64,000 bases of DNA from Pseudomonadales bacterium (GCA_965216795.1 OZ244196.1:2650368-2714367), one strand, 5' to 3'; shown: positions 12,891-62,565, counted from the stretch's first letter. A program made the numbers and translations. Notes: generated by a model from the letters alone, not told the origin.

Positions 12891-13081
12891 GTTTTATTGT
12901 TCTGTCCCGCAGCTGTTATTGCGTCGTATCGACTGGTTCAGGGCAAGGTATGATAGCGCAATCCGGCCGCGGCCATCGCAACCTGCGCTCGATGCTGCCC
13001 AAATGTTGATCGTGACTGGTCTGGCCTTGCAGATTTTTATGCCAGGGTGCAAGCTGTCTGCTGGAGCGATTGCCCTTCAGG

Positions 13082-13438: not shown

Positions 13439-13563
13439 TGGTCTGGCCTGCGCGCTTCCAGGTGAGTGATTTTAGGTTACTAAAAGTATACTGGTTGACA
13501 TTAGTATCTTAGGATATCACCATTGCGGCCACTTGTTTAGTCCTGTCTATTTGGAGCATCACG

Positions 13564-14097: not shown

Positions 14098-14156
14098 TTT
14101 CGCGAGTGTCAGGCTGGGCCTGGGCAAGCTGTTCGGGGTAGAGTAAAGCAAAATTT

Positions 14157-14765: not shown

Positions 14766-14774
14766 GGGCATGCA

Positions 14775-16682: not shown

Positions 16683-16830
16683 GCAGTCTTTTTGCGCAAG
16701 GCTTTTCCTGTAAAAGGTATCGCGGGTCGGTAGTGGTCAATTATCGATCACACGTGGGCAAGCCGCACTATTTGGTAGGCTGCTGCCAAGGATTTCGATC
16801 CCGATTGCGTCTTACCGAATAACAGACGGC

Positions 16831-17385
16831 ATGGCAGGTGACACATTGCCCGATAAGGAACTCATCAAACGCGCCCAACGGGGTGACAGCGCTGCCTTTG
16901 CCGAGGTGGTGGACGAATGCTATGCCACGCTTTTTCGGTTTGCGATGAAATATACGGCGCAGCGCGCCGATGCCGAAGATATTGCGCAGCAGGCCTGTAT
17001 CAAGCTTGCGCGCTCTATTCATACCTATCGCTTTGAATCCAAGTTCAGTACCTGGCTATACCGGCTGGTGCTGAATTGCGCGCGGGACTGGCAGCGAAAG
17101 CACCCGCGGGACGAGCAAAGCATCGATGAGCTCAATGGGTCGATGCACGAGTCGCTACTGGTGGCTGGCGGTGCCGCGGAAGACCAGATCCTGCTTGGCC
17201 AGGTGCTTGAGCGTGTCGCGGGATACGGCGATGACTTTTTGGAGACGCTGGTGCTGGTGATGGGCGAGGGCATGAGTCATGCTGATGCCGCCGCCTTGCT
17301 CGATGTGAAAGCGTCGACCGTCTCCTGGCGCATTCATGAAATTCGCAAGCGCCTGTCGGCTGAGCAGCTGAAGGGGGTTCAATAA
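16831..17385 (+). CDS. ECF (sigma-70 family) RNA polymerase sigma factor
   Basis: 184 aa with region 2 (FAEVVDECYATLFRFAMKY...DAEDIAQQA) and a region 4 HTH. Confidence 0.85.
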   Translation: MAGDTLPDKELIKRAQRGDSAAFAEVVDECYATLFRFAMKYTAQRADAEDIAQQACIKLARSIHTYRFESKFSTWLYRLVLNCARDWQRKHPRDEQSIDELNGSMHESLLVAGGAAEDQILLGQVLERVAGYGDDFLETLVLVMGEGMSHADAAALLDVKASTVSWRIHEIRKRLSAEQLKGVQ

Positions 17386-37829: not shown

Positions 37830-38330
37830 ATAAGGTCAGCCATAAGGCGACGAATAACCTTGAGTCGTCGTTTTACGATTGGTTGAAGCGAGAGGTTCAT
37901 TCGCGTGAGTGCGCCTGTCGGCCACGCGATGGATGCCTTGTGCCTTACGAGCGTTCCATTTGATAGCCTGGCATTGTCGTTACCCACAGCGACGGCTGTC
38001 TGACCTCGGCAGGAAATGCGGTTCGAACGCGCAGGCGTTCGCGCAAGCCACTCAACACGCTACAGAGTGTTGTTCGTGGCTCCGCCAAGGCGGTTGGTAT
38101 TGGACTTCAGGAAAGGAGACAAAATGGATACAACTGGATTCCAATCTTGATCTAAGGATAGACCCGGGTGCGGGTTTATCCAATCGCAAAAGGCGGCGAT
38201 CGTGAGTCTCTGGATGACCGAAGGAGCAAATTCAGGGAGGCGGCCGACCTGAATTGCAAAGACTTGCTGGCCTTGCGCGTCTTCGGGGCAGGGCATATGT
38301 CATGCCCGGGTATTGGACGGGTAATCGGTA

Positions 38331-38369
38331 AGGTGCATTTGGGGTTTGGCCTGACCGGACCCCAAATGC
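38331..38369 (-). terminator. 13-bp-stem hairpin just downstream of DUF3604 gene 1
   Basis: gtgcatttggggt-ttggcctgaccgg-accccaaatgcac, 15 nt after the stop at 38384. No strong U-tract. Confidence 0.45.
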
Positions 38370-38383
38370 ACCCGAAGCATGGA

Positions 38384-40336
38384 TCAGTTTGGATCAAACC
38401 AGATAGGCGAGGTATAGGCACGTTCCTGGCCAAACTTGGGTGACTGTTCTGGCGCGGCTTCACCGAAGTGTTTCTCGTCAATGGTAGTCCATCGCGGTGT
38501 AGGAATCTCGAGTACCCTTGCGTAGTAAAACGCGCGAAGGTTTGGGTCAAAATCAGGGTCACGCCACACCACGCTCAGTGACGTGTCACCAATGGTGTTG
38601 GTATAACTGGCCGATGCGACATCGACGGTATTGCCCACCGGCTTGACCTTGTTCCGTTTGATTTTGCGACCGTCAGAAGCTGCGACGTTGTATACCTGCT
38701 CCTGGGTGTTGCCTTCGGCATCGACCCAGCCCTTGATGATCTGGATGCGATCGAGATTGGCGCCGATCGGGTCTTTCAGTGCTGAGACTATAAACGTGGG
38801 TGCCTTGTCGCCGCCCGGTGACTGGAGGGTTCCCCCCATGGGCACGCCATTGCGATAGGCATGGGTAACATAATCGTGGCGATCGACCGTGCTGTGGTCA
38901 TAGTCCCAGCCACCAAAAAAGCGCACCGTCATGCGTGGCCCGGTAGTCGCGTAGACTTCTTTGCGCTGCATCGCATCAAACAGCGCCTTGCGGGTGTTCT
39001 CGCGAGCCCAGACCGCTGCGTAGCCCGAAGATGCAGTCTCCCAGTGATGAACACTGATGCCAGAACCCGCATCGTCTTCAAAAAAGCTCTTATGCGCTCG
39101 CCCGGGCATGGGCTCGACCGACGTCATTTTGCCGAAGAAGTTATCTTCATCGCTGGTGGCAAGGCCGGTGTGCGAGTCGGTGCTGCCGATCATGCCGAAC
39201 TTGTAGGGGTTAACCCCGATTTGTTCTTCGAGCGCCAATCCATTTTTGAGCGCAGATCGCGCGTACTCAAACTCGAGCATGTTGTCTTCTTTTGCGGCCA
39301 GGAAAGACAGGTTGCTCATATCCCAGGTTTCATAATCGGCAAACTCGTCGCTGGGCGATAAAACCGGGTGTGCCTCGCCATCGCCCTTGATCTGGGTCAC
39401 CTCAATAATGGGCTCGTATTTCACGCGCAATGCGGCTTGCTCGGCGGTCAGGGGCTCGCCGGAAAAGGTGGTTTCGGCAAACATCAGGCCGTTGCTGACG
39501 TTGCCGTTGTGCGGAATCGACAGAACCCTGCCGCCGGTTGTGGATTCATAATTGGCCAGATATGCCCAGAGATCCTCCGGGTTGCCGCTATCCATTGATG
39601 AAAAGGGTACAACCTGTCCGGTTGTTTGCGCATCGTCGGCAAACAGCACATTGCGGTGCAGGTTGTTACCGCCCGGCATCGATGTGTATTCATAGCCAAT
39701 AAACGCCGTAAATGTGCCTGGCCGGTTATAGGCATCGGCCGTAGCGCCGACTTGCTTCCAGACAGACTCGACCACCGGGGCCGGTACCTCAAGGCCCTGC
39801 AGGGAGCGGATATGCTCAACGGTGATCCAGGAGCTCCCCTGGGTATAAATCTCGGGGTTTTCAGCGGTTGTTGCGCCCATGGACATGAGGCCGAACTCCA
39901 TCACAACGAGTTGGTGCTTTCCCTCGGCTACGTATTTGGCCCAGCGTTTGCCCAGGTTGGTCTCCGCGATATCGGGTGAGCCGGCAAATACCTTGGGGAA
40001 AATGCCCATAAACTCGGCGTGGTCCGACACCATCAAAAAGTCCAGTGGCCTTGCGAGTTTGGCCTTGACGCCCGTCTGGGAGGTGACCGTTTCGCCCATC
40101 GCAAAGCGATACGCATCTGCTGGCGTAATCGTGCGGTTGCCGAAGGTAAAAGCATCCGGAGACTGGTTGGTATGCAGGTGGGTATCGCCCCAAAAAACCT
40201 GGGCCGGAAAATCGTTGGCAACCGGCGGTGAGTATTCATGTTCTTTGGCCTGTGAGCCAGCCGTGGCAAGCACCAGGGCTGTAGAACACAGGAAGCTGCA
40301 AATTACTTTGATCGAACGCGCGCGCATATTAGACAT
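38384..40336 (-). CDS. Exported DUF3604 family protein (paralogue 1)
   Basis: 650 aa. Signal peptide; FWGDTHLHT metal-type motif; conserved C-terminus WRDPDFDP...YYARVLEIPTPRW...SPIW. Confidence 0.8.
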   Translation of the reverse strand: MSNMRARSIKVICSFLCSTALVLATAGSQAKEHEYSPPVANDFPAQVFWGDTHLHTNQSPDAFTFGNRTITPADAYRFAMGETVTSQTGVKAKLARPLDFLMVSDHAEFMGIFPKVFAGSPDIAETNLGKRWAKYVAEGKHQLVVMEFGLMSMGATTAENPEIYTQGSSWITVEHIRSLQGLEVPAPVVESVWKQVGATADAYNRPGTFTAFIGYEYTSMPGGNNLHRNVLFADDAQTTGQVVPFSSMDSGNPEDLWAYLANYESTTGGRVLSIPHNGNVSNGLMFAETTFSGEPLTAEQAALRVKYEPIIEVTQIKGDGEAHPVLSPSDEFADYETWDMSNLSFLAAKEDNMLEFEYARSALKNGLALEEQIGVNPYKFGMIGSTDSHTGLATSDEDNFFGKMTSVEPMPGRAHKSFFEDDAGSGISVHHWETASSGYAAVWARENTRKALFDAMQRKEVYATTGPRMTVRFFGGWDYDHSTVDRHDYVTHAYRNGVPMGGTLQSPGGDKAPTFIVSALKDPIGANLDRIQIIKGWVDAEGNTQEQVYNVAASDGRKIKRNKVKPVGNTVDVASASYTNTIGDTSLSVVWRDPDFDPNLRAFYYARVLEIPTPRWTTIDEKHFGEAAPEQSPKFGQERAYTSPIWFDPN

Positions 40337-40596: not shown

Positions 40597-42441
40597 ATGC
40601 GAACGCCGACTGGAACGCCAACAAAAGCCAAAAAATGCTACGCACGTTCATTGGAATACTCCGCTCTTATTTTTACCACGTTACTGGTTAGCGGCGCGAG
40701 CATCGCGCTAGACACCGATGGCGATGGGCTTTCGAATACCGTCGAAACCAACACGGGCACCTTTGTTTCAGCTTCCGACACCGGCAGTGATCCGGTGGTT
40801 GCAGACACCGATATCGATGATTTTAATGACGGCATTGAGGTGTCATTGGGCACCGACCCGAATTCCGCACTGAATAGCCCGCGTGAAACGCACCTTGAGC
40901 CAGCTTACCCCGAAGTCTTTGGCCGCTTTGGTTTTAGCGTCGCGGTCGATGTCGACACGTCCGGCGCTTGCCAGATAAGGTTGGGCGCTAGTAGCGGTGT
41001 TGCCCAGATTTTTACAAGAGTAGGGGCGCAATGGTTGGAGCAAGGCCAGCTATTCACTGGCGGACTGGCCACCGGCCTGTTTTGCTGGAGTATCGCTTTG
41101 TCGGGTGACAGTGCCGCGATTGGCGCTCCGGGCGATGCGACCGGAGGCGTGGTTTATATTTTTGACCGGACGGGTTCCACCTGGCCATTCACCTCGACTC
41201 CTCTCGTTCCCGGCGATTCAGCAGGTGGCGATAGCTTTGGCTATGCCGTTGACATCGATGGTGACACGCTGTTCGTGGGCGCTCCGTTTGATGATGACAA
41301 TGGCAGCGCATCGGGCTCGGTCTACGTTTTCACGCGAACCGCCGGGGTTTGGAGCGAGCAAGCCAAGATTACCGCTGGCGATGGCACTGCCAACGACAAT
41401 TTTGGTCAAGACCTTGAATTCTCGGCAGGTTCGCTGATTGTCGGTGCGCCTGGTGATTCTGATAGTGCCAGCAATGCTGGGTCAGCTTACATTTTCACCG
41501 GCTCGGGGAGCAGCTGGACACAGCAAGCGAAACTTTCAGCGAGCACGCCCGCTGCCGATGATGCCTTTGGCACTGCAGTCAGTATTTCAAGCGATAGCGT
41601 ACTGATCGGCGCTCCTGGAGATGCTGCGAATGGCGCAGGTGCAGGTGCTGCCTATGTGTTCACGGGCTCCGGTTCATCCTGGGCCCAGCAGCAAAAATTG
41701 TTGCCCGGCGACGGTGCCAGTAATGATGTGTTTGGCGATGATGTTGCGCTCTGGGGAGAGGTTGCCGTCGTTAGTGCACCCTTTGATGATGGCCCCACCG
41801 ATTCAGGTTCAGCCTATGTTTTTTTACGCTCTGGCACAGCGTGGGTGCAAATTGATAAGTTCAAGCCCGCCGCTAGTGGGCAATCCGACAATTTTGGAGA
41901 GCGAATCGCTATTGATAATGGCACTGTAGCGCTTGGCGCTCCTACGCGGCAAGGTGCAACCGGCGCAGCTTATATCGTTGATCTGGACATCGATAAAGAT
42001 GGTTTGCTTAACGCGGTAGAGAGTGGCACTGGCATATTCGTATCGCAATTCGACACGGGGACTGACCGCCTCGACGCCGACAGCGATGAAGACAACGTCA
42101 TCGACGGCGATGAAACGCAAATTCATGGCACTGACCCGAATGCCAATGATACCGATGGGGACGGCATCCTTGATGATGCCGAGATTGCAATTGGTTGGAA
42201 CCCTTTGTCAGATGACATTGATAACGATGGCCTGACCGATGCTGAAGAGTCAGGCCTTGGTACTGACCCGCTACTTGCTGACACCGACATGGATGGCATT
42301 AGCGATGGTGATGAAATCGCGAGCGGCACGGACCCACTCATAGTTGATAACGGTACAAAGAGTGTTCCAGCAATGGGTGCGATGGGTTTATTTGCATTGA
42401 TGTTGGGGTTATTGTTTCTCGGCGTGAGGGTGAAGGCTTGA
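40597..42441 (+). CDS. Exported FG-GAP beta-propeller / TSP3-repeat protein with an IPTL/PEP-CTERM-like anchor (paralogue of 29666-32335)
   Basis: 614 aa with the same repeat types (GD...FG.AV.I.GDT..VGAP.DD....SGS.YVF; DTDGDG). C-terminus [26 protein letters not shown]. Confidence 0.8.
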
Positions 42442-44002: not shown

Positions 44003-44152
44003 GGCCATCTCCCTGTTCATTCACCTGGTGAGTGATCCAGGATTCAAACTAAACGAACGTTACCAGGCTTTCAAGTGACTTGGCCATTGGTGTGCGGCGC
44101 TTTCCCGTGTGGTTCCTGATTGGCACATAGGCAGCACTTGTAGTCTGCCTGA

Positions 44153-44453
44153 TTCCAGCCGCAATAACCCCATGAATAGTAAAGAGATTGGTGGGTATCA
44201 GGACTTGCTACGTGCCCTGGGGGTAATCCTGGGACCTGCCGATGACTACTTGGCCCATGGCTATGAGTCCAGCGAACAATACGTATCAGTCCCCATAAGC
44301 CTAAGCAATGTGAGAGGTTATCCGAAGGGCTTAATTGAGGCTTACCCCGACCGAAACATATCCGAACCTGCTGCCTGAGATTTCCTGGCCCGAGTGTTGC
44401 TGCGCTATGGACATCAAGGTCGGGGTGGGGTGGGCTGCCGAACCTGGGCCGAA
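44153..44453 (-). repeat. attP-like repeat unit, copy A (degenerate tRNA 3'-half fragment 44189-44269 plus L and R arms)
   Basis: L arm ttccagccgcaataaccccatgaatagtaaagagat. The tRNA-like core carries two 18-nt insertions. The R arm is colinear with copies C and D, including CCGAAM pairs at 44351/44362 and 44438/44449. Confidence 0.8.
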
Positions 44454-44680
44454 CCGCGCAATCAGGATAGCATGTCGTCATCTCAACTATCGGAAGTGGC
44501 CAGGCGCACGTTAGGTAACCCGAGTCTTCAGACAGAATACTCCCCGTTTCCAGTGCGCTCACCAAAACATCATGGGGGTCACACGGCTGTGGCCGCAGCT
44601 AACTGGACTATCTGAAAAGACAGTTGATTTTCTTCGCTAAAGAAGAACAATGTAGGCTTTCGCTCGCCACGAGAGAAACT

Positions 44681-46603
44681 ATGCAAAACAACCAGCTATG
44701 CGCTGTGTGGAGCCCCAATTCCCCCTCAAGGGACGATTTCGTTCTTTTTACTGCAATGATTGTTATATCACTCAGTGTTCTACTTACTGGGTGCGAGAGG
44801 CTTGATGATCCGTCGGTCCAGCCAGGTTTCGTTCAGGGCCAGGCTGTCAAATCTATGCAGCGTACGCCCGCACCTAAAAATACACAGAGAAATCTGTACT
44901 TTGGCGATTTGCATATACATACCAGCCTGTCAACAGACGCCTATGTTTTTGGCGTTCGCTCGCAGCCTGAAGACGTCTACACCTTTGCAAAGGGCGGCGT
45001 CATTGAGCATGCAGTGGGCTATCCTATCCAGATCGACCGTCCTCTGGATTTCGCTGCGGTAACTGATCACGCCGAGTACCTGGGTCAGGCTCGTTTGGCG
45101 GGCCTTGATATACCTACGAACATGCACCCGCTGCGCGATGTGCTTGCTGGCGGCAATGTCATTAGCGTGACAAAGCAGTGGTTGATTTCCAGTGCATTTG
45201 TGCTTCGAAAAGGTGCCGGCTATGGCGTCGACGAAATTGATCTGTCTGTGAATCGCGCTGCATGGCAGCAAGTTATTAACGCCGCAGAGGCGGCTAATGT
45301 ACCGGGAGAATTTAGCGCATTTATCGGCTATGAATGGACGTCGTTTGTCGATAACAATCCGTCGATTCACATTCATCGTAACGTTATATACCGTGGCAGT
45401 GATGTGTCTGATCTGCCGTATAGTGCACTTGATAGCAACCGGCCAGAAGATCTATGGAGGTTTCTTGAGGGTGAGCAGCTCGCTGGAAAAGAAGCGATCG
45501 CTATTTCACATAATGCGAACATTAGCGCCGGCAATATGTACTCGGTCGTGGATAGTGACGGGGAGCCGTTAACCGACGCATATGCACGATTGAGGAATCG
45601 CTATGAGCCAATTAGCGAGATCCTGCAGATCAAGGGCGCCTCAGAGACGCACCCGATGATGTCGAATCTCGATGAGTTCGCAAGCTTTGAGCTGCTGTCC
45701 AACAGTCCACCGGAAGACCAGCTGCAAGGCTCATACGCACGCAGCGGCTTGCGTCTTGGTCTGGAAACTTCAGCCCGGCAGGGATTTAACCCGTATCAAT
45801 TCGGTGTGATAGGGTCCAGTGACAGCCATAATGCCAGCTCTCCTTCTCAGGAGAATCGTTATCATGGCAAGCTGCCCGTGCTGGATGGAACCGCTGGCTT
45901 GCGCACCAACAAAGCACTGCTAATACCTGAGTTGATCAACCCCGCTATGCGCTGGGGATCGGGAGGGCTGGCAGCAGTTTGGGCGGAAGAGAACACGCGC
46001 GGTGCTGTGTTTGATGCGCTACGCCGCCGTGAGTGCTATGCAACCTCGGGTCCCAGAATCAGTGTGAGGCTATTTGGTGGCTGGCAGTATACCCAGGCCA
46101 TGCTTGACACTGGGAATGTTATTGAACAAGCCTACAAGCACGGTGTTCCAATGGGTGGGCAGCTGGGCCCAGCACCCAAAGACGGTGCCCCGACCTTTAT
46201 GATTATCGCGGCAAAAGACCCTGAAGGCGCAAACCTTGACCGTGTGCAGATTATTAAAGCGTGGGTCGATTCTGTCGGTGAGAGTCACGAAAAAGTTTAC
46301 GACGTGGCCGCAGCCGGTGGGCGGACAGTGAGCAAAGAGACAGGAAAACTAGAGCCTGTGGGTAACACGGTTGACGCAGCTGAGGCTAGCTACAGTAATA
46401 CAATCGGTGCGGCTTCGCTGGCGGCGATTTGGCGAGACCCTGATTTCGATGTGTCCAGTGAAGCTGTTTACTATGCGCGGGTCATCGAAATTCCCACGCC
46501 ACGATGGTCGACATACGATGCTAAATTGTTAGGCGATGAACCTATGAATCCAGCGTGGATTCAGGAGCGTGCCATTACATCGGCGATCTGGTATTCGCCT
46601 TGA
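44681..46603 (+). CDS. Exported DUF3604 family protein (paralogue 2; lipoprotein-like)
   Basis: YFGDLHIHT motif and C-terminus WRDPDFD...YYARVIEIPTPRW...SAIWYSP. Possible lipobox LLTGC. Start uncertain: TTG 44624, ATG 44681 or ATG 44756. Confidence 0.8.
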   Translation: MQNNQLCAVWSPNSPSRDDFVLFTAMIVISLSVLLTGCERLDDPSVQPGFVQGQAVKSMQRTPAPKNTQRNLYFGDLHIHTSLSTDAYVFGVRSQPEDVYTFAKGGVIEHAVGYPIQIDRPLDFAAVTDHAEYLGQARLAGLDIPTNMHPLRDVLAGGNVISVTKQWLISSAFVLRKGAGYGVDEIDLSVNRAAWQQVINAAEAANVPGEFSAFIGYEWTSFVDNNPSIHIHRNVIYRGSDVSDLPYSALDSNRPEDLWRFLEGEQLAGKEAIAISHNANISAGNMYSVVDSDGEPLTDAYARLRNRYEPISEILQIKGASETHPMMSNLDEFASFELLSNSPPEDQLQGSYARSGLRLGLETSARQGFNPYQFGVIGSSDSHNASSPSQENRYHGKLPVLDGTAGLRTNKALLIPELINPAMRWGSGGLAAVWAEENTRGAVFDALRRRECYATSGPRISVRLFGGWQYTQAMLDTGNVIEQAYKHGVPMGGQLGPAPKDGAPTFMIIAAKDPEGANLDRVQIIKAWVDSVGESHEKVYDVAAAGGRTVSKETGKLEPVGNTVDAAEASYSNTIGAASLAAIWRDPDFDVSSEAVYYARVIEIPTPRWSTYDAKLLGDEPMNPAWIQERAITSAIWYSP

Positions 46604-46622
46604 GGTCAAAAGTTGCCATCGA

Positions 46623-46722
46623 CTCCAGCCGCAATGACCCTATGAATAGTAAAGAGAATGGTGGGCCCACCAGGACTTGCTACGTGCCCTCGGGGTAAAC
46701 CTGGGACCTGCCGATTATGAGT
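46623..46722 (-). repeat. attP-like repeat unit, copy B (L arm + tRNA 3'-half fragment; R arm missing)
   Basis: ctccagccgcaatgaccctatgaatagtaaagagaa, then the tRNA 3' half with the 18-nt T-loop insertion (46680-46697). Homology stops abruptly after ...gattatgagt. Confidence 0.85.
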
Positions 46723-46932
46723 AATTAGCCTACCGTATTTACTGAGATTGATCTACGTTGATTTAGATCGATATTGGAATCAATTCAATCACTTGGTCTT
46801 TTACCTGGGTCTATCCAGGTTGATACAGATTGATTTCATCTGCTTACATAGCGCTTACACGCATTTGATAATATGTCTGCCCAATTTGATATACGCCAAC
46901 CGGTACTTGAACTATAATTCTTGGTGTGATAT

Positions 46933-49245
46933 ATGCTGGGTGCGCGCGCTACTCTGCTCAGCCATAACAAAAAGGAGATAATCTCGCTCAGGATTATGCC
47001 GATGCCCCAGATCTTAAGAAAAGACCTTTATCTTAAATTTAGACTTCAGCGCGTCTTGGTGTCAGGAGTGTTAAAAGTTCTAGCAGGCTTATATTGTCTT
47101 GCACTCCAGCACGCAGCCATAGCGGCTGCGCTCGACCCCGACGACTTTACCTCACTGGGGACGCTTAACCTGGCGAGTGGCGATTACACTTTTGATACCA
47201 CGGCGATGACGATCGTTGAAAACAGCGCGCCAGGCACCGTACTGTTTACCGGTGTTGAGGACGACCAGAACGGTCAGGCCGACAGCTTTGCGGGTGGTAG
47301 CGATACAGTAGGTGTTAATGGCATTCCACATATCGCAGTCTTTACCTTTGATGACATCAACATTGATGGGACCAACAGTATTACCATCACCGGTAATCGA
47401 GCTATTGCGCTGTTATCAAAGAGCAATTTCTATCTGGATGAAACGCTATCGGTGGATGCCGTGCCGGCCCCTGCCCCAGATGCGCCGGAAGCGCAGTTTG
47501 GTGGCAAAGCTGGCCCTGGCGGCTTTGACGGCGGTACGCCCGGCATCAACAATGGCGATGGTGAGGGGCCAGGTGGCGCGCTTGGCAATGATGGTTTTAC
47601 TGGCGCACACGGCGCAAGTGGAGGATTCGGTGGTGATGGGGTTGGCCCCTTGCCAGGCCTATTAGGCATGTCCTACGGTGATCTGCTGCAAGCACTGCAA
47701 GGTGGAAGTGGCGGCGGTGATAGCGATGATTTTTTGACCCCTGAAAATCGAGGCCCCGGTGGTGGTGGTGGTGGCGCGATCATGCTGGTTGCCAGCCAGG
47801 CAATAACCATCGACAGCAATGGCGTTGTCAGCGCACAAGGAGCGGATGGTTACCAGCGAGAACCCCCCTCCATACCGGGGTTTACAGGATTATACGGGGG
47901 TGGCGGTAGTGGTGGTGGGATTATCCTGTCGGCACTAAACGTAGTCATTAACGGCCAGCTATTAGCAAAAGGGCTCGACGGCAGCGGTACTTACACTGGC
48001 GGTGGTGGCCGTGTGTTGGTCGCAGGCTATAACAGCTTCCTGTTCGGTAGCACGCCTGACGTCAACAGTTTTATCGCCAATATCGACGTCGACCCTCCTT
48101 TTGCATCCGCTGAGGGCGGATGGATTTCTGTGGTGCCTCGCACAACACTCGTCTCATTTGGCGAGTCGCTGGCACTTAACAACGCAACCATTCAGATTCA
48201 GGGCAACATCGGAGCTCCCGGTGTCGAATTCATACCAGGCAACCTTGTTGCAACAGGCGAGCTTACCGTGCCTGCTGGAGGCACGAGCTACGCGTTTGAC
48301 ATTAGCCTTACCGGTCCAACCGAAACCACCGTTATTAACGGCAACGATCCGCTACAAATCCAGACGTCGCTATCAGGTTCCGGCACGGTCAACGTACCAC
48401 TGGTGATCGACGCCGATGCCGAGCTGAATATGGTTAATGATGAGCTCACCTTTCAGGGCGACGGCATTGCCAACGACGACGGGCTGGTAAACAACGGCAC
48501 CATGAACCTGATCAACGCAATTATCAATGGTGATGTACGCTCACCGGCTGGGTCACAGATAAACGTTGCAGGTAGTGCGACATTTAACGGCCTGTTTTCA
48601 GGTGCCGGTACATTTTCGGGCACTAGCAACCTGGTCACCTTTAACGGCGGCTACTCACCCGGTGATAGCCCTGCGGCTATTAACTTTGGTGGCGATGTGT
48701 CGTTGAGTTCAGGGAACACGCTGCTGATGGAGATCTTCGGCAGCGTTGCGGGCAGTGGTTACGACCAGCTCACTGTTGCCGGTAACCTGGCAATGAATGG
48801 CGTGATCGATTTATTTGTTGATCCGCTGTTAACACTCAACGCGGGCGACAGCTTTACTTTGCTCAACTGGAGCTCGGTCGCAGGCGAGTTTGCATCGGTG
48901 CTTGGCATTCAACAAGCAAATGATCTGGACATCGGTATTCGTTATAACGCCGGCAATATGGTGGCTAAGGTTGTGCCGCGTGGTGACGTGAATGATGACG
49001 GCGTTGTTAACGGTGATGACCTGGCGATTATTGCCAGCAATGCAGGCGTGAACACAAGCAGCTACTTTAGCGGCGACGTAAACGGCGATGGCGTGGTCGA
49101 TAATTCCAGCAATTCTGGCTCAGACCGATCGTTAGTCGAGGCGGCTATTCTCAATGCGAATACCCAAACTGTACCTCTGCCTTTCTGGCTGCCATTGATA
49201 CTGTTGATGGGCGCTACCATTACGTATAGGTTGAGTGCCCGGTGA
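46933..49245 (+). CDS. Large exported glycine-rich (beta-helix-like) protein with dockerin-like Ca-binding repeats and a VPLP-type C-terminal anchor
   Basis: 770 aa. Gly-rich blocks (GGFGGDG, GPGGGGGGAIML, GGGGSGGGIIL). GDVNDDGVVNGDDL and GDVNGDGVVDN dockerin/EF-hand-like repeats. C-terminus TVPLPFWLPLILLMGATITYRLSAR. Start uncertain (46933 or 46996). Confidence 0.65.
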   Translation: MLGARATLLSHNKKEIISLRIMPMPQILRKDLYLKFRLQRVLVSGVLKVLAGLYCLALQHAAIAAALDPDDFTSLGTLNLASGDYTFDTTAMTIVENSAPGTVLFTGVEDDQNGQADSFAGGSDTVGVNGIPHIAVFTFDDINIDGTNSITITGNRAIALLSKSNFYLDETLSVDAVPAPAPDAPEAQFGGKAGPGGFDGGTPGINNGDGEGPGGALGNDGFTGAHGASGGFGGDGVGPLPGLLGMSYGDLLQALQGGSGGGDSDDFLTPENRGPGGGGGGAIMLVASQAITIDSNGVVSAQGADGYQREPPSIPGFTGLYGGGGSGGGIILSALNVVINGQLLAKGLDGSGTYTGGGGRVLVAGYNSFLFGSTPDVNSFIANIDVDPPFASAEGGWISVVPRTTLVSFGESLALNNATIQIQGNIGAPGVEFIPGNLVATGELTVPAGGTSYAFDISLTGPTETTVINGNDPLQIQTSLSGSGTVNVPLVIDADAELNMVNDELTFQGDGIANDDGLVNNGTMNLINAIINGDVRSPAGSQINVAGSATFNGLFSGAGTFSGTSNLVTFNGGYSPGDSPAAINFGGDVSLSSGNTLLMEIFGSVAGSGYDQLTVAGNLAMNGVIDLFVDPLLTLNAGDSFTLLNWSSVAGEFASVLGIQQANDLDIGIRYNAGNMVAKVVPRGDVNDDGVVNGDDLAIIASNAGVNTSSYFSGDVNGDGVVDNSSNSGSDRSLVEAAILNANTQTVPLPFWLPLILLMGATITYRLSAR

Positions 49246-49340
49246 AGCCGACAGGTTTGTTGGCGCTCGAGCTGAGCGGGCGATAAAAGTAATCAGTTCA
49301 GGACAGTCTTGGCCGTATTGATCCCTGAGGGTACGCCAGA

Positions 49341-49575
49341 TTGAAAAATGAATGGTGGGCCCACCAGGACTTGCTACGTGCCCTCGGGGTAAACCTGGGA
49401 CCTGCCGATTATGAGTCCAGCGAACAATACGTGCCCATCTCCATAAGTCTAAGAAGTGGGAGGGGTTATCGGCGGGGTATCTCTGGGGCTTTCTTCGACC
49501 GAACCATATCCGAACCTGTCGCCTTGAGAGTCGCGTGCCTGAGTGTCACCCCGCTGAGGGCATGTGGCCGAAGGC
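49341..49575 (-). repeat. attP-like repeat unit, copy C (truncated L arm + tRNA 3'-half fragment 49353-49417 + R arm)
   Basis: tRNA 3' half with the 18-nt insertion (49374-49391). The R arm is colinear with A and D, with a ~20-nt internal deletion near its end. Confidence 0.85.
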
Positions 49576-49790
49576 TCTCTCATTCTCCTAAGTTGTTGAT
49601 ATCCTGGGCTAATTAACTCCTTCCCCATCCCCTGAGATTGCCTCAGAAGCAGCATTGGCTGCGTCCTGCAGCGTGCCAGTGGACAGGTGAGTCGACTGCT
49701 GTACGCCTGTTGGCTACATATTGACGGCTAGCTGCGAATTGAAGATACTGGTTGCACCCCTTGGCTCCGAATGACAACGGAGCACCTCCC

Positions 49791-50504
49791 ATGCCTGCCA
49801 CTAACGTGCCTGCGTCCATTACGGTTGTTAGACAGGCGAGCCCGATTTTCTTGAGCGCCCAGCTGCTGCGCAGGGACTTCCTGGCGATTTTGCTGCTTGT
49901 GAATGTCTCGATGGCGCAGGCGTATGTTGAAGCGCCGCGCGTGATGTCTGCCCAATTGACAACGTATCAGTCCAGTATCAGTTATCTGATACACAATGAT
50001 TCGGATTGGCTTCTGGACCAGCTCGGTATGCAGTTTGCTGGCGTCCTGCCACTGGGCACCTATGCACTCGATTTATCTTATGATTGGGATTCGTTGCGCG
50101 ATATCTATGATGATGATCCCACATTCGATGAGATCATGGGCCCCCAGTGGGATCTTTTCGTCAGGTTTTGGTTCGATTCTCGTGATGATCCTCTCTATCC
50201 CGGTGAGTCTTTCACCCTGACGATCGATTTCAATAGCGCATTGCTGGCTGCAGAATATGGTGTTACGGATATCAGGCAGCTGAACACTGCTTTCTACTCC
50301 GGAGTGCTGGGCGGTTCTAACGCAGAGCATGGCGTTGAAACCCCTGTCGAGTTGCTGGAGGTGCCGGTGTTCCCAGAGCGTATCGTCGTCCCTCTGCCGG
50401 GGTCTTTCGGATTGCTACTTGCCCCGATGTGTCTTTTGGTTTACCTGCGGCGCCCATGGAGTCGGGCGCACCGCTCACAGAGTCGGCTGCTCCAGCCGCA
50501 ATAA
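49791..50504 (+). CDS. Hypothetical exported protein with a VPLP-type (PEP-CTERM-like) anchor
   Basis: Start at ATG 49791 (GGAG RBS). C-terminus VVPLPGSFGLLLAPMCLLVYLRRPW. The stop codon lies inside the L arm of repeat D. Confidence 0.55.
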   Translation: MPATNVPASITVVRQASPIFLSAQLLRRDFLAILLLVNVSMAQAYVEAPRVMSAQLTTYQSSISYLIHNDSDWLLDQLGMQFAGVLPLGTYALDLSYDWDSLRDIYDDDPTFDEIMGPQWDLFVRFWFDSRDDPLYPGESFTLTIDFNSALLAAEYGVTDIRQLNTAFYSGVLGGSNAEHGVETPVELLEVPVFPERIVVPLPGSFGLLLAPMCLLVYLRRPWSRAHRSQSRLLQPQ

Positions 50505-50757
50505 CCCTATGAATAGCAAAGAGATTGGTGGGCCCACCAGGACTTGAACCTGGGACCTGCCGATTATGAGTCCAGCGAACAATAAGAACCCGTCTTCATA
50601 AGTCCAAGAAATGGGAGGGGTTATCCCGGAGCCCTCATTAGGGTTCACGCCGACCGAACCATATCCGAACCTGTCGCCTTGAAAAACGCTCGCCCGAGTG
50701 TCACTGGGCTATGGGCATCAAGGCTGGGGAGGGGAGGGTTGCCGAAACTGGACCGAA
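50489..50757 (-). repeat. attP-like repeat unit, copy D (L arm + exact tRNA 3' 47 nt at 50526-50572 + full R arm)
   Basis: The 47-nt core is identical to the tRNA gene 3' end, with no insertion. CCGAAM pairs at 50654/50665 and 50742/50753. Confidence 0.9.
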
Positions 50758-50793
50758 ATTCGAGAGGTATTCTGTGGATAGGGCCATGTTAGA

Positions 50794-51432
50794 TTATTTC
50801 TTTTCTGCAGAAAGTATGGATACAACCGTCTCAATCATTACAGAAATAAATGTGTCTCGATACCTTTTGTCGTTTTCAGGCGACTCTTGAATTAGTGCAC
50901 AGTAGTCGGCAAGGTTGGTGACTACCAAATTTCGAATGGTGCGATACCGAATAGTTTTTTCAGTCTCTGGTACCCCTTCTAAGCTGTTTGATAGCAGCGC
51001 ACTTAAATCTGATAAAGATGAGTAGGAGCGTTGGTCTTCAGATTCTACCGGATTCATCTGGTGCCCATCCATGAGCGCGAGTATCCGCAAGTAGGCTCTT
51101 CCATCATCTTTGTTGTCCAGTTCACCTATCAGCGGTAATAAAAGTACCTTGGCCGTTTCTTCCAGGCTAGGTGTTGGGCCGAAGACATTCAACAGTTTCT
51201 GCCGGCGTTGCTCTATACCTGATCTGTGCTTATCAAAAATGGCCTGTAAGAGGCCGGCCTTGTTCTCGAAGTGGTAATTGAGTGCGGACGCATTGCGCTG
51301 ACCAGAGGCTTTCACAATTTCATTCATTGACACGGCGTCAATGCCACGTGCAGCCATTAGCTTCATTGCGGTACGCAGAATTTTGGCCTTGGTCTGTCTG
51401 GCGGCTTCTTCCTTTTTGCAATTCATTGGCAT
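50794..51432 (-). CDS. TetR family transcriptional regulator (low-GC islet)
   Basis: 212 aa with a TetR HTH (KILRTAMKLMAARGIDAVSMNEIVKASGQRNASALNYHF). Confidence 0.8.
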   Translation of the reverse strand: MPMNCKKEEAARQTKAKILRTAMKLMAARGIDAVSMNEIVKASGQRNASALNYHFENKAGLLQAIFDKHRSGIEQRRQKLLNVFGPTPSLEETAKVLLLPLIGELDNKDDGRAYLRILALMDGHQMNPVESEDQRSYSSLSDLSALLSNSLEGVPETEKTIRYRTIRNLVVTNLADYCALIQESPENDKRYRDTFISVMIETVVSILSAEKK

Positions 51433-51468
51433 ACCAGGTCCGATTACATTAAATCCAGCTTTATTGAT

Positions 51469-51515
51469 AATGAAGTCTCATTATAATAACCTACCAAAAT
51501 TAATGAGATCTCATT
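51469..51515. promoter_or_regulatory. Two copies of a 14-bp palindrome (candidate TetR operators) in the divergent promoter
   Basis: aatgaagtctcatt (51469-51482) and the perfect palindrome aatgagatctcatt (51502-51515), 33 bp apart, between the TetR and MBL genes. Confidence 0.5.
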
Positions 51516-51632
51516 AGAATATTCATGGGTAGATGGTGGCGTAAGCCATTGAAATAATAAGGTTTATCGGTTTTGGGCCTGGGTTCATATCCTGAAGCCA
51601 CACAGTTGACGACATATATTGAGGCAATAGTT

Positions 51633-53015
51633 ATGCGGCAGTTAGTGCAATTCACAGCGGTAATTTTTGGTTCTCTGCTGGTAATCAATGCTATGGCTGG
51701 TTCGGGCGTCGATGTCCATTCCGAAGAGTACCAGAATGTGCGTGTTCCCAAGGACTTCAATGGCCGCGCTAGTGACATCATGCTCTATAAGCCGAAGTTG
51801 GAAAAGATTAGCGATGAAGTCTATGTCGCGTCTGGTACGGGTAATGCGTTTCTGGTGAAAACGCCGGAAGGGAATGTTATTTTTGATACAGGCGTCCCCT
51901 GGCAAGGGGAGGCGCTTAGGGAACTTCTGCTTTTCGTTGGTCATGAAAAAACGACACATATTATTGTTTCACATGCGCACGGTGATCATATGGGCGGGCT
52001 CACGGCCTGGCAGCAGGAGATCAATGATGGCGCTGAAATTATCGCGCATAGTCGTTATCCATATACCAACAAGATATACGGGGATACCGATGTTTATCTA
52101 TGGCAACAACGAACGGCATCTATTTACCCATCACCGGGGACGGGGGCTGCAGAAATGGTTCGACAGGCTAGGGCGATCGAGCCGACCCGTTTGGTTTATC
52201 CAGACCATGACTACAGCTTTACTGTTGGCGGTGTAGAGTTTGTTGTCATCGCTATGCAGGGAGGCGCAGAAGGTGAAGATAACCTGGTACTTTGGTTGCC
52301 GGAGCAGGAAGTTGCTTTTACTGGCGATTTGTTCGGCCCCCTGTATCCTATGGTGCCAAACTTGTACACAGTGCGGGGTGAAAAGCTGAGAGATCCGCTG
52401 GCCTACATTGACGCGCTTGATCGAATGATAGAGCTTGAGCCTAGTATCATGCTCCCGAGCCATTTCGGTGCTGTTAAAGGGAAAAACTATATCCACAAAT
52501 CGCTGACTGTGACTCGTGACGGGACAGAATATGTCTACAAAGAAACTGTTAAGGGGATGAACGAAGGTAAGAGTGTCTACGAGTTGATGGAATCTGTACG
52601 GCTTCCTGAATCACTTGAAATCAGCCAGGGACATGGAAAGACGTCCTGGAATGTTAGGGCAATTTGGGAATTGCTAGCGGGTTGGTTTTACTTTGATACC
52701 GTTGCTGACCTGTACTCTGTTCCTGTCAGTGCTGTTTACGCCGACATTGTTGAGCTTGTAGATGGCCCAGACAAGCTGATTGCTAGCGCTGAAAGATATG
52801 CTTCAGAAGGCGACAACCTTAAGGCAATCAGGCTATTGGATATAGCTCAGGGCGCCGGACAGGAAACTACGGATGCCATCAAATTACGTGTAAAACTTTA
52901 CTCTGCACTTATTGAGGAGTCTAAAGATACGCACAGCAATGTCAGTTTGGATGATATTCTCGAGGCGGCGTTGAGGTCATCAAATGCTGAATTGAAAAAA
53001 CGTGCTGACAAGTAA
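51633..53015 (+). CDS. Exported MBL-fold metallo-hydrolase, alkyl/aryl-sulfatase-like
   Basis: Start at ATG 51633 (GAGG RBS; signal MRQLVQFTAVIFGSLLVINAMA). HAHGDHMGG metallo-beta-lactamase motif. Helical C-terminal domain reminiscent of the alkyl-sulfatase dimerisation region. Confidence 0.65.
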   Translation: MRQLVQFTAVIFGSLLVINAMAGSGVDVHSEEYQNVRVPKDFNGRASDIMLYKPKLEKISDEVYVASGTGNAFLVKTPEGNVIFDTGVPWQGEALRELLLFVGHEKTTHIIVSHAHGDHMGGLTAWQQEINDGAEIIAHSRYPYTNKIYGDTDVYLWQQRTASIYPSPGTGAAEMVRQARAIEPTRLVYPDHDYSFTVGGVEFVVIAMQGGAEGEDNLVLWLPEQEVAFTGDLFGPLYPMVPNLYTVRGEKLRDPLAYIDALDRMIELEPSIMLPSHFGAVKGKNYIHKSLTVTRDGTEYVYKETVKGMNEGKSVYELMESVRLPESLEISQGHGKTSWNVRAIWELLAGWFYFDTVADLYSVPVSAVYADIVELVDGPDKLIASAERYASEGDNLKAIRLLDIAQGAGQETTDAIKLRVKLYSALIEESKDTHSNVSLDDILEAALRSSNAELKKRADK

Positions 53016-53177
53016 TTGTGGGTCTTTGATGCTTGTTGTCTACACTGCGGTTCGAGAATGCGCGTCAAAACGATGCCTATGGGCATAAGTCACGATAGCG
53101 TCGCAGCTATGGTGCCAGAATGCACACTCAAAAGTATGGTCCTTTTATTTCTATAACCTTAAGAAATCAAAGAAGAT

Positions 53178-53254
53178 TGGTGGGCCCACCAGGACTTGAA
53201 CCTGGGACCTGCCGATTATGAGTCGGATGCTCTAACCAACTGAGCTATGGGCCC
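53178..53254 (-). tRNA. tRNA with anticodon CAU (Met or, more likely, lysidine-type Ile2)
   Basis: 77-nt cloverleaf read by hand: GGGCCCA-TA-GCTC-AGTTGGTTA-GAGC-A-TCCGA-CTCATAA-TCGGC-AGGTC-CCAGG-TTCAAGT-CCTGG-TGGGCCC-ACCA. C4 and C5 in the acceptor stem match the remembered E. coli ileX. Confidence 0.9.
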
Positions 53255-59795: not shown

Positions 59796-61694
59796 TCAGC
59801 GTGGGGCGGCCTGCTGGCTGGCCTGGTACCAGATCGGCGAACTCCAGGCCCGCTCCTGGATCGTCCGCTGGAGCTGGCTGGATTGGCACCAGTTGGGCAG
59901 TTTTGCCCGCTCTTCGGCCGATTTGCCGGCGCTGGTGCAGGCCCAGTCGGTGCTGCGACAGCTGGGGTTCTCCACCACCCGGGCGTAGTAGACCGCGTCC
60001 TGGGCGGGGTCGAAATCGGGGTCGCGCCACAGCGTGCACAGGCGGGCGTGGCCGGGGCCGCGGGGCTTGCAGCTGTCCAGGTCGACACTGGCCTTATTGG
60101 GCCCGCCGGCGATATCGATCACCTGCTGGTGCAGCTGGCCATCGCTGTCGGTCCAGCCCTTGATGATCTGGGCCCGCTGCAGCGCCGTGCCCGGATGTCG
60201 GGGCGTGCCTGGGTCCTGGCTGGCGACCAGCAGGAACTGCGGCGCCTGGTCTGCGAGCGTTCCGGCATCGAGCTTGCCGCCCATCGGCACGCCATCGCGG
60301 TAGGCCCCGGCCAGCCAGTCACTGCGGGCGCAGCTGTCGCTCTCGAACGAGGGGCCGGCGAACAGGCGCAGGGCAATGCGCGGCCCGCTGGTGCCATAGG
60401 CCTCGCGACGGCGCATTGCATCAAACAGTGAGGCGCGCGAATTCTCCTCGGCCCAGACCGCCACCAGGCCGCCGTTGTTGCGACCCTGGCGCGGGTTAGG
60501 TTGGTTGCCCGGCAGGTCGCGGCGCCACTCCTCGACGCTGCCCGGCGTCGCATCGTGGGTATCGGTCGAGGCGATAAAGCCCAGCTGGAAGGGGTTGATG
60601 CCCAGTCGCTGCTGTTCTTTGAGGCCCTCAAGCAGGGCATAGCGCGCAAAGTCCTGGGTCGCCACGCAGCCTTCATCCAGCAGCGAACCCACGCCCGTAT
60701 TGCGTTGGCACTGCTCGGTATCCGGCAGGCGCAGCTTTTCAAAGTTGCACAACTCGTCGTTGCCGCCGAGCACATTCCACATGCCGTTGCGACACTCAGA
60801 GTCGCCTTTCATCTGCATCATTTCAACCAGGGGCTCGATACGGGCACGCAGCGCCGCCAGTTCGCGCTGGGCGTCGATATCCAGTGCCGGGTCAGGCACA
60901 GTCGTAAACAGGTTGCCGTTCGACAGGTTGGGGTTGTGGGGAATCGCCAGCACGTCGCAGCCGTTGTCGGCATCCATGCATTCATCGCGCAATCGCTGCC
61001 AAAGCACGGTCTCATCCGGTTCGTCGTTATAGCTGATCGGCCGCTCGATCACGGTCTCGTTCTTGAAAATGACGTTGCGGTGGATCTTGGTCAGCTCGGG
61101 GTTGGCGGTGTACTCGTAGGCGACAAAGGTTGAAAACGCACAGCTGTCGGTCTCGTCCTGGTGGCGGGCCGCCGCAGCCTGGATCTGCTGCCAAATCTGC
61201 AGCTCGACATCGCGGCACAGCGCGCCGTCTTTGCCGCATACCTCGGCGTTCGACAGTCGGCCGCCGGTCTGCTCCACCATCCGCCGGACGATTTCCTTGA
61301 CGTTCTTGGCACCGCGCAGATCGACCGGGCTGCGAAAGCGCTCGCAGGTTTCGCTGCTGTAGGCGGGGCTGTCCGGGTCGGCGCACAGCCGGGTGGCGCC
61401 CGCATCCGAGGCGTGGTCGGTGGTGGCGGCAAAGTCCAGCGCGCGTTCCAGCTGCACGCTGTGCGCGCCGGGCTTCAGTGCAATGGCTTCGCCTTTGGCG
61501 AAGCGATAGGCATCGTCCGGGGTATTGCGGGTGCCAAAGGTCCAGGCGTCCATCGACAGCGCGGTATGGACATGCAGGTCGCCCCAGAACAGCTGGCGCA
61601 GCGGCTCATGATCGGCGCAGCGCGGGTCTGCTGCAAAGGCTTTGACTTGGCATACAATGGCCAGCAGGATGGGCAGGCTATGGCGCGGCAGCAT
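59796..61694 (-). CDS. Exported DUF3604 family protein (paralogue 3)
   Basis: 632 aa. Signal peptide; LFWGDLHVHT motif; C-terminus WRDPDFDP..DAVYYARVVENP...SSPIWY. Confidence 0.8.
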   Translation of the reverse strand: MLPRHSLPILLAIVCQVKAFAADPRCADHEPLRQLFWGDLHVHTALSMDAWTFGTRNTPDDAYRFAKGEAIALKPGAHSVQLERALDFAATTDHASDAGATRLCADPDSPAYSSETCERFRSPVDLRGAKNVKEIVRRMVEQTGGRLSNAEVCGKDGALCRDVELQIWQQIQAAAARHQDETDSCAFSTFVAYEYTANPELTKIHRNVIFKNETVIERPISYNDEPDETVLWQRLRDECMDADNGCDVLAIPHNPNLSNGNLFTTVPDPALDIDAQRELAALRARIEPLVEMMQMKGDSECRNGMWNVLGGNDELCNFEKLRLPDTEQCQRNTGVGSLLDEGCVATQDFARYALLEGLKEQQRLGINPFQLGFIASTDTHDATPGSVEEWRRDLPGNQPNPRQGRNNGGLVAVWAEENSRASLFDAMRRREAYGTSGPRIALRLFAGPSFESDSCARSDWLAGAYRDGVPMGGKLDAGTLADQAPQFLLVASQDPGTPRHPGTALQRAQIIKGWTDSDGQLHQQVIDIAGGPNKASVDLDSCKPRGPGHARLCTLWRDPDFDPAQDAVYYARVVENPSCRSTDWACTSAGKSAEERAKLPNWCQSSQLQRTIQERAWSSPIWYQASQQAAPR

Positions 61695-61734: not shown

Positions 61735-62565
61735 ATGATACTCGATAAATTCAGGCTCGATGGCAAGACGGCCATTGTCACCGGTGCGGGCAAGGGCTGT
61801 GGTTACAGCATCGCGCATGCGCTGGCGCAAGTCGGTGCCAGGGTGCTGTGCGTGGCGCGCACCGGTGCTGATGTCGAGGTCACGGCCGATGAGATCCGCG
61901 CGCAGGGCGGAGAGGCGGCGGCGCTTGCGGCGGATGTCACCAACGAAGCGGACCGCGAGCGCATTATTGCTGCGGCGCTCGATCATTTTGGCCGGCTCGA
62001 TGTGCTGGTCAACAATGCCGGCGGCACCGGCCACGGGCCAACTGCGCAGATCGACGACGCCCAGGTCTACCAGACCATGCAGGTAAATTTTATGGCGCCG
62101 GTTTACCTGATACGCTCGGCAGTGCCCGCGATGCGCAACGTGGGCGGTGGATCGATCGTCAATATATCTTCGGGTATGTCGCGCATCGCCAATATTGGTT
62201 CGGTACCCTATGGCGGGGCCAAGGCAGCGCAGGAACAGGCCACGCGCATGCTCGCGCTGGAGTACAGCCCCGAGGTGCGCATCAATGCCCTGCGGCTGGG
62301 TGCGATCCGCACCCAAAACATGGAGGACAACCTGCTCAAGGCCATGCCGGGTATCGGTGAAAAGCTCAGTGACTGGACGCCAGTGGGGCGGTTGGGTGAG
62401 CCCGATGATATCGCCGCCGCAGTCGTGTATTTGGCGACGCCGGCCTCGGGCTATGTTACCGGCAAGATACTCGACGTCGACGGCGGTATGATTATCGAGC
62501 GCTCGCTGATGGAAGTCATCGCCACGGCCGAGCGCCTGCACGGTGGTGGCACGTCCGGGGCATGA
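61735..62565 (+). CDS. SDR family oxidoreductase (FabG-like)
   Basis: 276 aa. TGAGKGCG cofactor motif, NNAG, catalytic YGGAKAA (YxxxK). Confidence 0.8.
   Translation: MILDKFRLDGKTAIVTGAGKGCGYSIAHALAQVGARVLCVARTGADVEVTADEIRAQGGEAAALAADVTNEADRERIIAAALDHFGRLDVLVNNAGGTGHGPTAQIDDAQVYQTMQVNFMAPVYLIRSAVPAMRNVGGGSIVNISSGMSRIANIGSVPYGGAKAAQEQATRMLALEYSPEVRINALRLGAIRTQNMEDNLLKAMPGIGEKLSDWTPVGRLGEPDDIAAAVVYLATPASGYVTGKILDVDGGMIIERSLMEVIATAERLHGGGTSGA

Follow-up and report, generated by a model that had tools for sequence, protein, structure and literature searches.

Genomic islands inserted in tRNA genes have been catalogued by Islander, which requires an integrase in each island; the anticodon-centred sublocation is the commonest class (2083 of 3919 islands), and only 4 of the 3919 islands stand in arrays of three or more (PMC4383910). 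According to a 2026 survey, integrative elements are almost never shorter than 4 kb, and 6% are devoid of recombinase vestiges (bioRxiv 10.64898/2026.01.13.699239). Islands without their own recombination genes are known from cis-mobilizable elements (CIMEs) related to ICESt1/ICESt3 of Streptococcus thermophilus, which are flanked by attL and attR, carry no integration or transfer genes and lie in tandem at the 3' end of the target gene; they are regarded as decayed integrative and conjugative elements (ICEs) or integrative and mobilizable elements (IMEs), mobilised in cis by an adjacent functional ICE or IME (PMC5704250). In Dehalococcoides, the target is the tmRNA gene ssrA, with a 20-bp repeat and a crossover in the T-loop; 16 islands encode a CcrB-like serine recombinase, while 15 are without an integration module and were read by the authors as possible cis-mobilizable elements (PMC3146451). 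Here we describe an array of tRNA-bounded islets in a Pseudomonadales bacterium, located in a stretch of 64,000 nucleotides (GCA_965216795.1 OZ244196.1:2650368-2714367, hereafter the window), in which four copies of the 3' half of a tRNA(CAU) gene divide the 9 kb next to this gene into four islets of one or two genes, none of which encodes a recombinase.

The locus shares with the Islander entries an intact tRNA gene, same-strand displaced 3' fragments starting at the anticodon-centred sublocation, one of the two canonical crossover positions besides the T-loop, and a cargo of atypical composition; it differs in that the four islets measure just 1.1-2.6 kb and have no integrase. With CIMEs it has in common the lack of integration and transfer genes and the tandem position at the 3' end of a target gene, and its units would be the counterpart of attL and attR, but the 64-kb window contains no ICE, IME or decay relic from which the islets could derive or by which they could be mobilised in cis, and one- or two-gene islets with clean, attP-sized units are not what CIMEs look like. 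The closest described array is that of Dehalococcoides ssrA, with its many direct 3'-end repeats, tandem strain-specific islands and conserved repeat-adjacent sequence. It differs from the present one by its shorter repeat, which is 47 nt here and accompanied by long arms, by its crossover position, which here appears to be the anticodon loop, and by its recombinase; a large serine recombinase beside attL is absent from the window, and is present at this same tRNA in two relatives (L018 and L029, see below). Arrays flanked by att sites and free of recombinase genes having already been described (PMC5704250, PMC3146451), the array is a compact new example of tandem accretion and not a new kind of system, and an earlier note on this DNA, made from the sequence alone, had overstated its unusualness. 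The surveys nevertheless suggest that its size and density are out of the ordinary, and both Islander and the 2026 survey filter against such objects. It also stands out for an unusually clean anatomy that recalls cassettes. If its islets are only scars, the locus would be of use chiefly for island-finding software, which drops candidates that are integrase-less or under 2-4 kb.

The tRNA gene (53178-53254, minus strand) is the single tRNA found by ARAGORN in the window, with anticodon CAT, and scores 73 bits against the Rfam tRNA family. Its top Escherichia coli matches are annotated as tRNA-Ile in the context dnaG-rpoD-mug-tRNA, and in the window the order is dnaG-rpoD-cysK with the tRNA downstream; the gene is therefore assigned to the tRNA-Ile2 type (CAU, lysidine) at a conserved position. 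Its 3' 47 nt (53178-53224), taken as the reference copy of the repeated core, recur at four further sites in the same orientation as the tRNA, as had been noticed earlier. Core D (50526-50572) is an exact copy (47/47 positions, with 0 chance matches expected). Cores C (49353-49417) and B (46659-46722) are identical to each other at 64 of 65 aligned positions and differ from the tRNA half solely by a common 18-nt insertion in the T-loop, which reads TACCCCGAGGGCACGTAG between GGTT and CAAGTCC in the tRNA sense. Core A (44189-44269) is decayed: in addition to the T-loop insertion and to another one of 18 nt in the anticodon loop, it shows a 2-nt deletion as well as substitutions. The description given in the earlier note is thereby confirmed, and refined as to the length of the insertion and the extent of the repeat. 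In copies A, C and D the identity to the tRNA starts at GACTCATAA, whereas in B it starts one base further on, at ACTCATAA; in every copy the start, (G)ACTCATAA, extends over the stem and loop of the anticodon. The 18-nt insertions lie at 44213-44230 and 44244-44261 in copy A, 46683-46700 in B and 49377-49394 in C; the T-loop 18-mer of A, B and C differs from the anticodon-loop 18-mer found only in A, and the two have in common the pattern CC..GGGC..GTAG.

The repeated unit proved to be larger than the tRNA half: it extends over 270-300 nt and consists of an arm of ~185 nt, the tRNA half and a 36-nt trailer. An arm of type 1 (about 160-190 nt, on the anticodon side) is homologous in A, C and D, and a trailer of 36-38 nt past the CCA is homologous in A, B and D; the 25 nt past the CCA of the tRNA itself (53153-53177) bear a weak resemblance to the type-1 trailer. 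The four units are all on the minus strand. Unit D (50488-50757) is a complete type-1 unit, with trailer 50488-50525 and arm 50573-50757, while unit A (44151-44460) is its decayed counterpart, with trailer 44151-44188 and arm 44270-44460. Unit B (46621-46866) combines a type-1 trailer (46621-46658) with an arm of another type (type 2, 46723-46866) that is unrelated to type 1. Unit C (49353-49575) has a type-1 arm (49418-49575) and no type-1 trailer, the sequence past its CCA being unique.

Both types of arm contain paired direct repeats. GGTTCGG-type pairs, 11 nt apart, are found at 44351/44362 and 44438/44449 in unit A, at 49499/49510 in unit C, and at 50654/50665 in unit D, where a degenerate distal pair is located near 50731/50742, so that A and D each hold two pairs ~87 nt apart. 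Seven of the nine minus-strand GGTTCGG sites of the window fall inside the three type-1 arms, and the paired pattern was seen 4 times with 0.01 expected by chance. In the type-2 arm the repeats are TTGAT pairs, 10 nt apart, at 46748/46758 and 46820/46830, these two pairs being 72 nt apart. Moreover, the unit ends are discrete: the three trailers of A, B and D stop at one nucleotide, 36 nt past the CCA, directly against the cargo, while in both A and D the arm reaches just past one common motif. Judged from its anatomy, with core, paired-repeat arm, trailer and discrete ends, the unit would fit attL/attR sites flanking inserted elements. Counted from the anticodon loop, the two sides of a type-1 unit measure ~185 and ~75 nt, which we take to be the geometry of a lambda-type attP.

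The type-1 arms also hold a relic of the tRNA 5' end, GCCCATAGCCCAGT (tRNA positions 3-16), which matches at 13 of 14 nt at ~130 nt from the junction. It is located between the GGTTCGG pairs on the minus strand, at 50700-50716 in D (shuffle p=0.001) and at 44400-44412 in A (p=0.04). On account of this relic, the type-1 arm seems to have descended from a whole tRNA locus in which ~125 nt replaced positions 17-29. A structured RNA or an attC-like hairpin was considered for the unit and rejected, since unit D folds no better than its shuffles, as RNA or DNA and on either strand (z = +0.9 to +1.2); Rfam finds nothing beyond the tRNA in the units, and no internal inverted repeat was reported in them.

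The core-to-core spaces are 2.4, 2.6, 1.1 and 2.6 kb for islets 1 to 4, and the cargo genes of the four islets are mutually unrelated. The cargo of islet 1 (44461-46620, plus strand) is a DUF3604 protein gene (44624-46603; Pfam E=1e-203) whose product is just 37-42% identical to its paralogues elsewhere in the window. That of islet 2 (46867-49352, plus strand) encodes a 770-aa glycine-rich protein (46933-49245) with no family match in Pfam or NCBIfam, which is apparently secreted or surface-exposed. Islet 3 (cargo 49576-50487, plus strand) has one open reading frame (ORF) of up to 250 aa (49752-50504), likewise without family match, whose stop codon falls within the trailer of unit D; its translation ends with a hydrophobic anchor followed by basic residues, and this C-terminus looks like a sorting signal. 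The cargo of islet 4 (50758-53152), identified with Pfam and NCBIfam, comprises a TetR regulator on the minus strand (50794-51432) and, on the plus strand (51633-53015), a hydrolase of the metallo-β-lactamase (MBL) fold, which by sequence is a secreted, alkyl-sulfatase-like protein of 460 aa. The GC content of islet 4 is 45-50%, versus 55-62% in the rpoD/cysK flank. Outside the source genome, its MBL hydrolase has homologues that are 55-60% identical, those with a name being phylogenetically distant and belonging to metagenome-assembled genomes of Myxococcota or Deltaproteobacteria. The nearest one (76% identical in amino acids, ~70% in nucleotides) is part of a TetR-MBL pair that stands directly beside a 386-aa tyrosine integrase on a metagenome contig (L026, 7991-11077). 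As this contig, which ends before any tRNA could appear, contains no tRNA fragment or arm, it only hints at islet 4 being a travelling unit.

The cargo, with a DUF3604 protein, two secreted proteins without family, a TetR regulator and an MBL hydrolase, thus includes no integration or transfer genes. Indeed, when searched with Pfam, the islet ORFs, down to the small ones across the units, are free of recombinase domains, in line with the earlier note, and so are the ORFs of at least 150 aa in the rest of the window, where no relaxase, type IV secretion system or integrase was found either. In tblastn searches of the window, the L018 serine recombinase matches just the residues encoded by the antisense strand of the tRNA, with no gene relic, and the L026 tyrosine integrase matches nothing. 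The unit is not dispersed in the window, dispersal being a possibility that the earlier note had kept in mind: an nhmmer profile of the unit matches just the five array members and one marginal site. This marginal match (38312-38365, minus strand, E=0.027) is to the middle of the type-1 arm and lies just outside the DUF3604 gene located at 38384-40336; it may represent either noise or what is left of a very old unit. Beyond the window, a junction 20-mer searched in 185,579 species genomes gave one exact match, a chance occurrence inside a Motiliproteus coding region; a type-1 arm 23-mer, a type-2 arm 29-mer and the junction 20-mer had no exact match in IMG/VR, nor had the two arm patterns in the Joint Genome Institute metagenomes. 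These scans require exact words, by which diverged relatives are missed. BLAST returned nothing for the type-1 arm against phages and plasmids or for the type-2 arm against plasmids.

Comparison with relatives, made on the loci around cysK orthologues, shows that tRNA-Ile2 is a site of turnover. In L020 (cysK 98% identical in amino acids) the sequence diverges completely directly past the tRNA 3' end, while contig L021 ends within the tRNA 3' half. L002 and L018, which represent one species (cysK 99.5% identical in nucleotides), are collinear at 99.5% until ...CTCATAAT in the anticodon loop and different beyond this point. The arrangement is therefore not one that all relatives carry in identical, fixed form, the other possibility raised by the earlier note. 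In L018 and L029, the tRNA continues into its own 3' half, after which comes a large serine recombinase gene with Resolvase and Zn_ribbon_recom domains; this gene, which is split by one stop codon in L018, has an ORF that runs antisense through the tRNA 3' half to stop at the TGA of the anticodon loop. Large serine recombinase genes of one family, ending antisense in a tRNA 3' half, were seen at L018 6885-8444, L029 2587-3170, L025 10001-11755 and L024 10001-11539. Those of L024 and L025 belong to elements with a type IV coupling protein that abut tRNA-Ser or a displaced tRNA end, and in L024 a tyrosine-integrase island stands in tandem at the same tRNA end. In L013 (12293-12341; also in L014-L016), a decayed full-length pseudo-tRNA(CAU) is present 3.5 kb downstream of the intact gene and encloses two small ORFs and a TSP3-type protein of 830 aa, with a ParDE pair just past it; two other lineages have no extra tRNA copy within 10 kb.

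The relative L002 is a TARA metagenome scaffold in which the tRNA(CAU) is split by a 6.8-kb insert (11211-18078) with the 9-nt ACTCATAAT duplicated at both ends. At 118 nt from its left end, the insert has a tRNA(CAU) of its own that is complete and identical; it further contains genes for polyamine synthesis (arginine decarboxylase, carboxynorspermidine pathway, agmatinase), has no recombinase, and terminates with an arm followed by the displaced tRNA 3' half. This arm (17880-18023) is 80-81% identical to the type-2 arm of the window, and the adjoining cargo differs. Between the window and L002, the orthologous cysK-tRNA spacer is 65% identical, cysK 78% and its third codon positions 50%. The type-2 arm is thus conserved above the neutral expectation, and must be either constrained or horizontally moved. 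Furthermore, the displaced half beside the L002 arm bears the T-stem of L002 (CGAAGG) and not that of the window (CCCAGG), which locates the crossover in the anticodon stem-loop, on the stretch from the arm to the T-arm. A second shared arm for the type-2 element was considered and rejected, as the sequence past core C has no significant similarity to the corresponding end in L002.

Taken together, these results make it probable that the 9 kb consist of four small, horizontally acquired islets, which entered one after another by site-specific integration into the anticodon loop of tRNA-Ile2 with a recombinase acting in trans, and which would in this sense be CIME-like mini-islands. For islet 4, its lower GC content and the distant named homologues of its cargo agree with such an acquisition. 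The crossover would take place in the anticodon loop (ACTCATAA), and each junction would be an att site of three parts: a P-arm-like arm of ~185 nt that holds two direct-repeat pairs at helical spacing, the tRNA 3' half, and a P'-like trailer of 36 nt. One islet plus one unit would then correspond in size and layout to a circular element whose attP measures ~270 nt. Because the islets encode no recombinase, their insertion, and any excision, would need an enzyme that is encoded by another element or at another locus and acts in trans. This enzyme would most likely be a tyrosine integrase with an arm-binding domain, since the long arms and the paired direct repeats at helical spacing favour such an integrase, or its excisionase. 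The contrast between high identity of the cores (98-100%) and low identity of the type-1 arms (62-75%; 87-90% for the trailers), together with unrelated cargo, is consistent with diverged partners having recombined at a common core and not with the duplication of a block. Some of the insertions at least would have occurred into already displaced copies and not into the working tRNA. Indeed, the identical cores of B and C, the type-1 trailer at B, the type-1 arm at C and the unrelated flanks that both turn towards islet 2 are the pattern that would be expected if islet 2 had inserted into a complete, pre-existing type-1 unit.

Several observations weigh against this proposal. Simple accretion does not predict the 18-nt T-loop insertion that cores A, B and C have in common: as this insertion should disable a tRNA, A, B and C cannot each be a former working 3' half. 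The earlier note, which had explained the copies as serial att repeats produced by tandem accretion of islands at the tRNA 3' half, was therefore largely right but too simple; att-like copies broken at the anticodon loop stand, and displacement of the tRNA half at each step does not. Displaced copies serving as secondary sites, an insertion borne by the attP or homogenisation by gene conversion could each explain the common insertion. As regards the enzyme, the repeats in the arms point to a tyrosine integrase in a circumstantial way, and the relatives have a large serine recombinase as the sole recombinase encountered beside this tRNA; the tyrosine recombinase assumed from the outset thus has the arm architecture as its one argument. 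In addition, the exact-word scans and the BLAST searches of phages and plasmids yielded no recombinase using the type-1 or type-2 arms, no circle or empty site was encountered and no islet was seen elsewhere as a unit, and the other end of islet 2 has no significant similarity to the corresponding end of the L002 insert.

Some of these points suit a fossil array equally well. Islands bearing their own integrases would have entered serially and lost these genes by deletion, the att copies being dead scars among which nothing moves any more, and we hold such an origin to be possible, if somewhat unlikely. Copy A is visibly decayed, the type-1 arms differ by 25-38%, no circles, second islet occurrence or cognate recombinase came out of the exact-word scans and the homologue search, and decay is the standard origin proposed for CIMEs (PMC5704250). 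However, the trailers end at one nucleotide against the cargo, the A and D arms end alike and no integrase relic is detectable, and independent random deletions would not give such identical clean boundaries. A fossil also sits badly with the conservation of the type-2 arm between genomes, with a copy D that still equals the tRNA at 47/47 positions, and with strains that differ at the site. If the islets are nevertheless only scars, the locus is an unusually tidy tRNA hot spot. The array could also have been built by a large serine recombinase of the family that stands beside this tRNA in relatives, instead of a tyrosine integrase. The gene of L018 and L029 abuts the tRNA and stops in the anticodon loop, and the Dehalococcoides ssrA arrays do use CcrB-like serine recombinases (PMC3146451). 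Homologues of the L018 enzyme also reside in elements with a type IV coupling protein at tRNA-Ser or at a displaced tRNA end. Serine integrases act on short att sites of about 40-50 bp that have no arms, and an origin of this kind leaves the conservation of a 185-nt arm and its paired direct repeats unexplained. As moreover nothing of such a gene is found in the window apart from the residues read from the antisense strand of the tRNA, and the L018 element is seen at its tRNA end only, its far end being off the contig, we consider this a live but rather unlikely alternative.

Less probable still is that no element ever integrated, and that a tRNA-linked repeat was amplified in situ by unequal crossing-over or slippage, with genes inserted later. 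The 3'-end repeats downstream of E. coli tyrT provide the model for such an event. The same orientation of all copies and their contiguity with the tRNA would agree with it, as would the common 18-nt insertion, by which cores A, B and C descend from one another, and the tRNA 5' relic of the type-1 arm, which derives the unit from a tRNA locus. Nevertheless, divergence within the same units is uneven, cores being far more alike than arms, unlike what tyrT-type repeats show; B and C are alike in their core yet unrelated on both sides; and one arm type recurs in L002 next to a host-specific tRNA half. The 1.1-2.6 kb of genes between the copies are unrelated and differ in GC content, and genes would have had to insert four times independently, each time exactly at a unit boundary. 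Serial integration in trans remains for these reasons the explanation that we prefer.

A bolder version of it, to which we lend rather little credence, is that the units are the attP sites of miniature recombinase-free cassettes circulating in marine Cellvibrionales and moved by an integrase encoded elsewhere. Each cassette would be composed of one or two genes and an arm-core-trailer site of ~270 bp, and would be inserted and excised at tRNA-Ile2 and at the sites of other cassettes. The clean common boundaries, the absence of an integrase relic, the presence of one arm in two genomes with different cargo and the turnover at strain level all point in this direction. Integron cassettes and the pdif modules of Acinetobacter are likewise small recombinase-free modules, bounded by recombination sites, collected at one anchor and served by an enzyme encoded elsewhere. 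The array of the window would work in a similar way, yet it belongs to neither: its head is a tRNA gene without integrase, there is no intI, attI or Pc, no attC-like hairpin or fold, and its sites are tRNA-derived direct repeats with arms and not XerC/D sites. A likeness of another kind concerns the L002 insert alone. In tRNA-dependent lysogeny of actinobacteriophages, a short common core is used, the tRNA is not rebuilt and the phage carries its own tRNA (PMC10865867), and the L002 insert similarly has a 9-nt core and its own complete tRNA copy. It differs in having no integrase or phage genes, and the junctions of the window all have a long 3' half that could rebuild the tRNA.

Should the units be functional att sites served in trans, single accessory genes would be shuffled at a tRNA without a recombinase of their own, namely genes for secreted hydrolases, surface proteins and a regulator-enzyme pair. 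Abundant marine heterotrophs would then possess a cassette economy that is separate from integrons. For identifying the cognate integrase, the locus gives defined sites, the GGTTCGG pairs 11 nt apart and the crossover at ACTCATAA.

CysK homologues place the host among marine Cellvibrionales, near Oceanicoccus, Dasania and Spongiibacteraceae. In none of the fetched relatives do the genes downstream of the tRNA correspond to those left of unit A, so that the ancestral far flank of the array is not defined by synteny, and scans for promoters and terminators gave nothing over background. On the other side of the tRNA, the interval between a 17-kDa-antigen-like gene and rpsU/yqeY holds a short-chain dehydrogenase gene (61735-62565) and, on the minus strand, a third gene for a DUF3604 protein (59796-61694). 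Since the equivalent site is free of genes in the relatives L002, L005 and L013, the segment 59796-62565 forms a second variable spot in the conserved rpsU-dnaG-rpoD neighbourhood. The three DUF3604 paralogues of the window (38384-40336, 44624-46603 and 59796-61694) are 33-42% identical, and two FG-GAP/TSP3 proteins (29666-32335 and 40597-42441) are 39% identical. All these paralogues lie inside 35 kb, which suggests an expansion of secreted-protein families around the tRNA hot spot.

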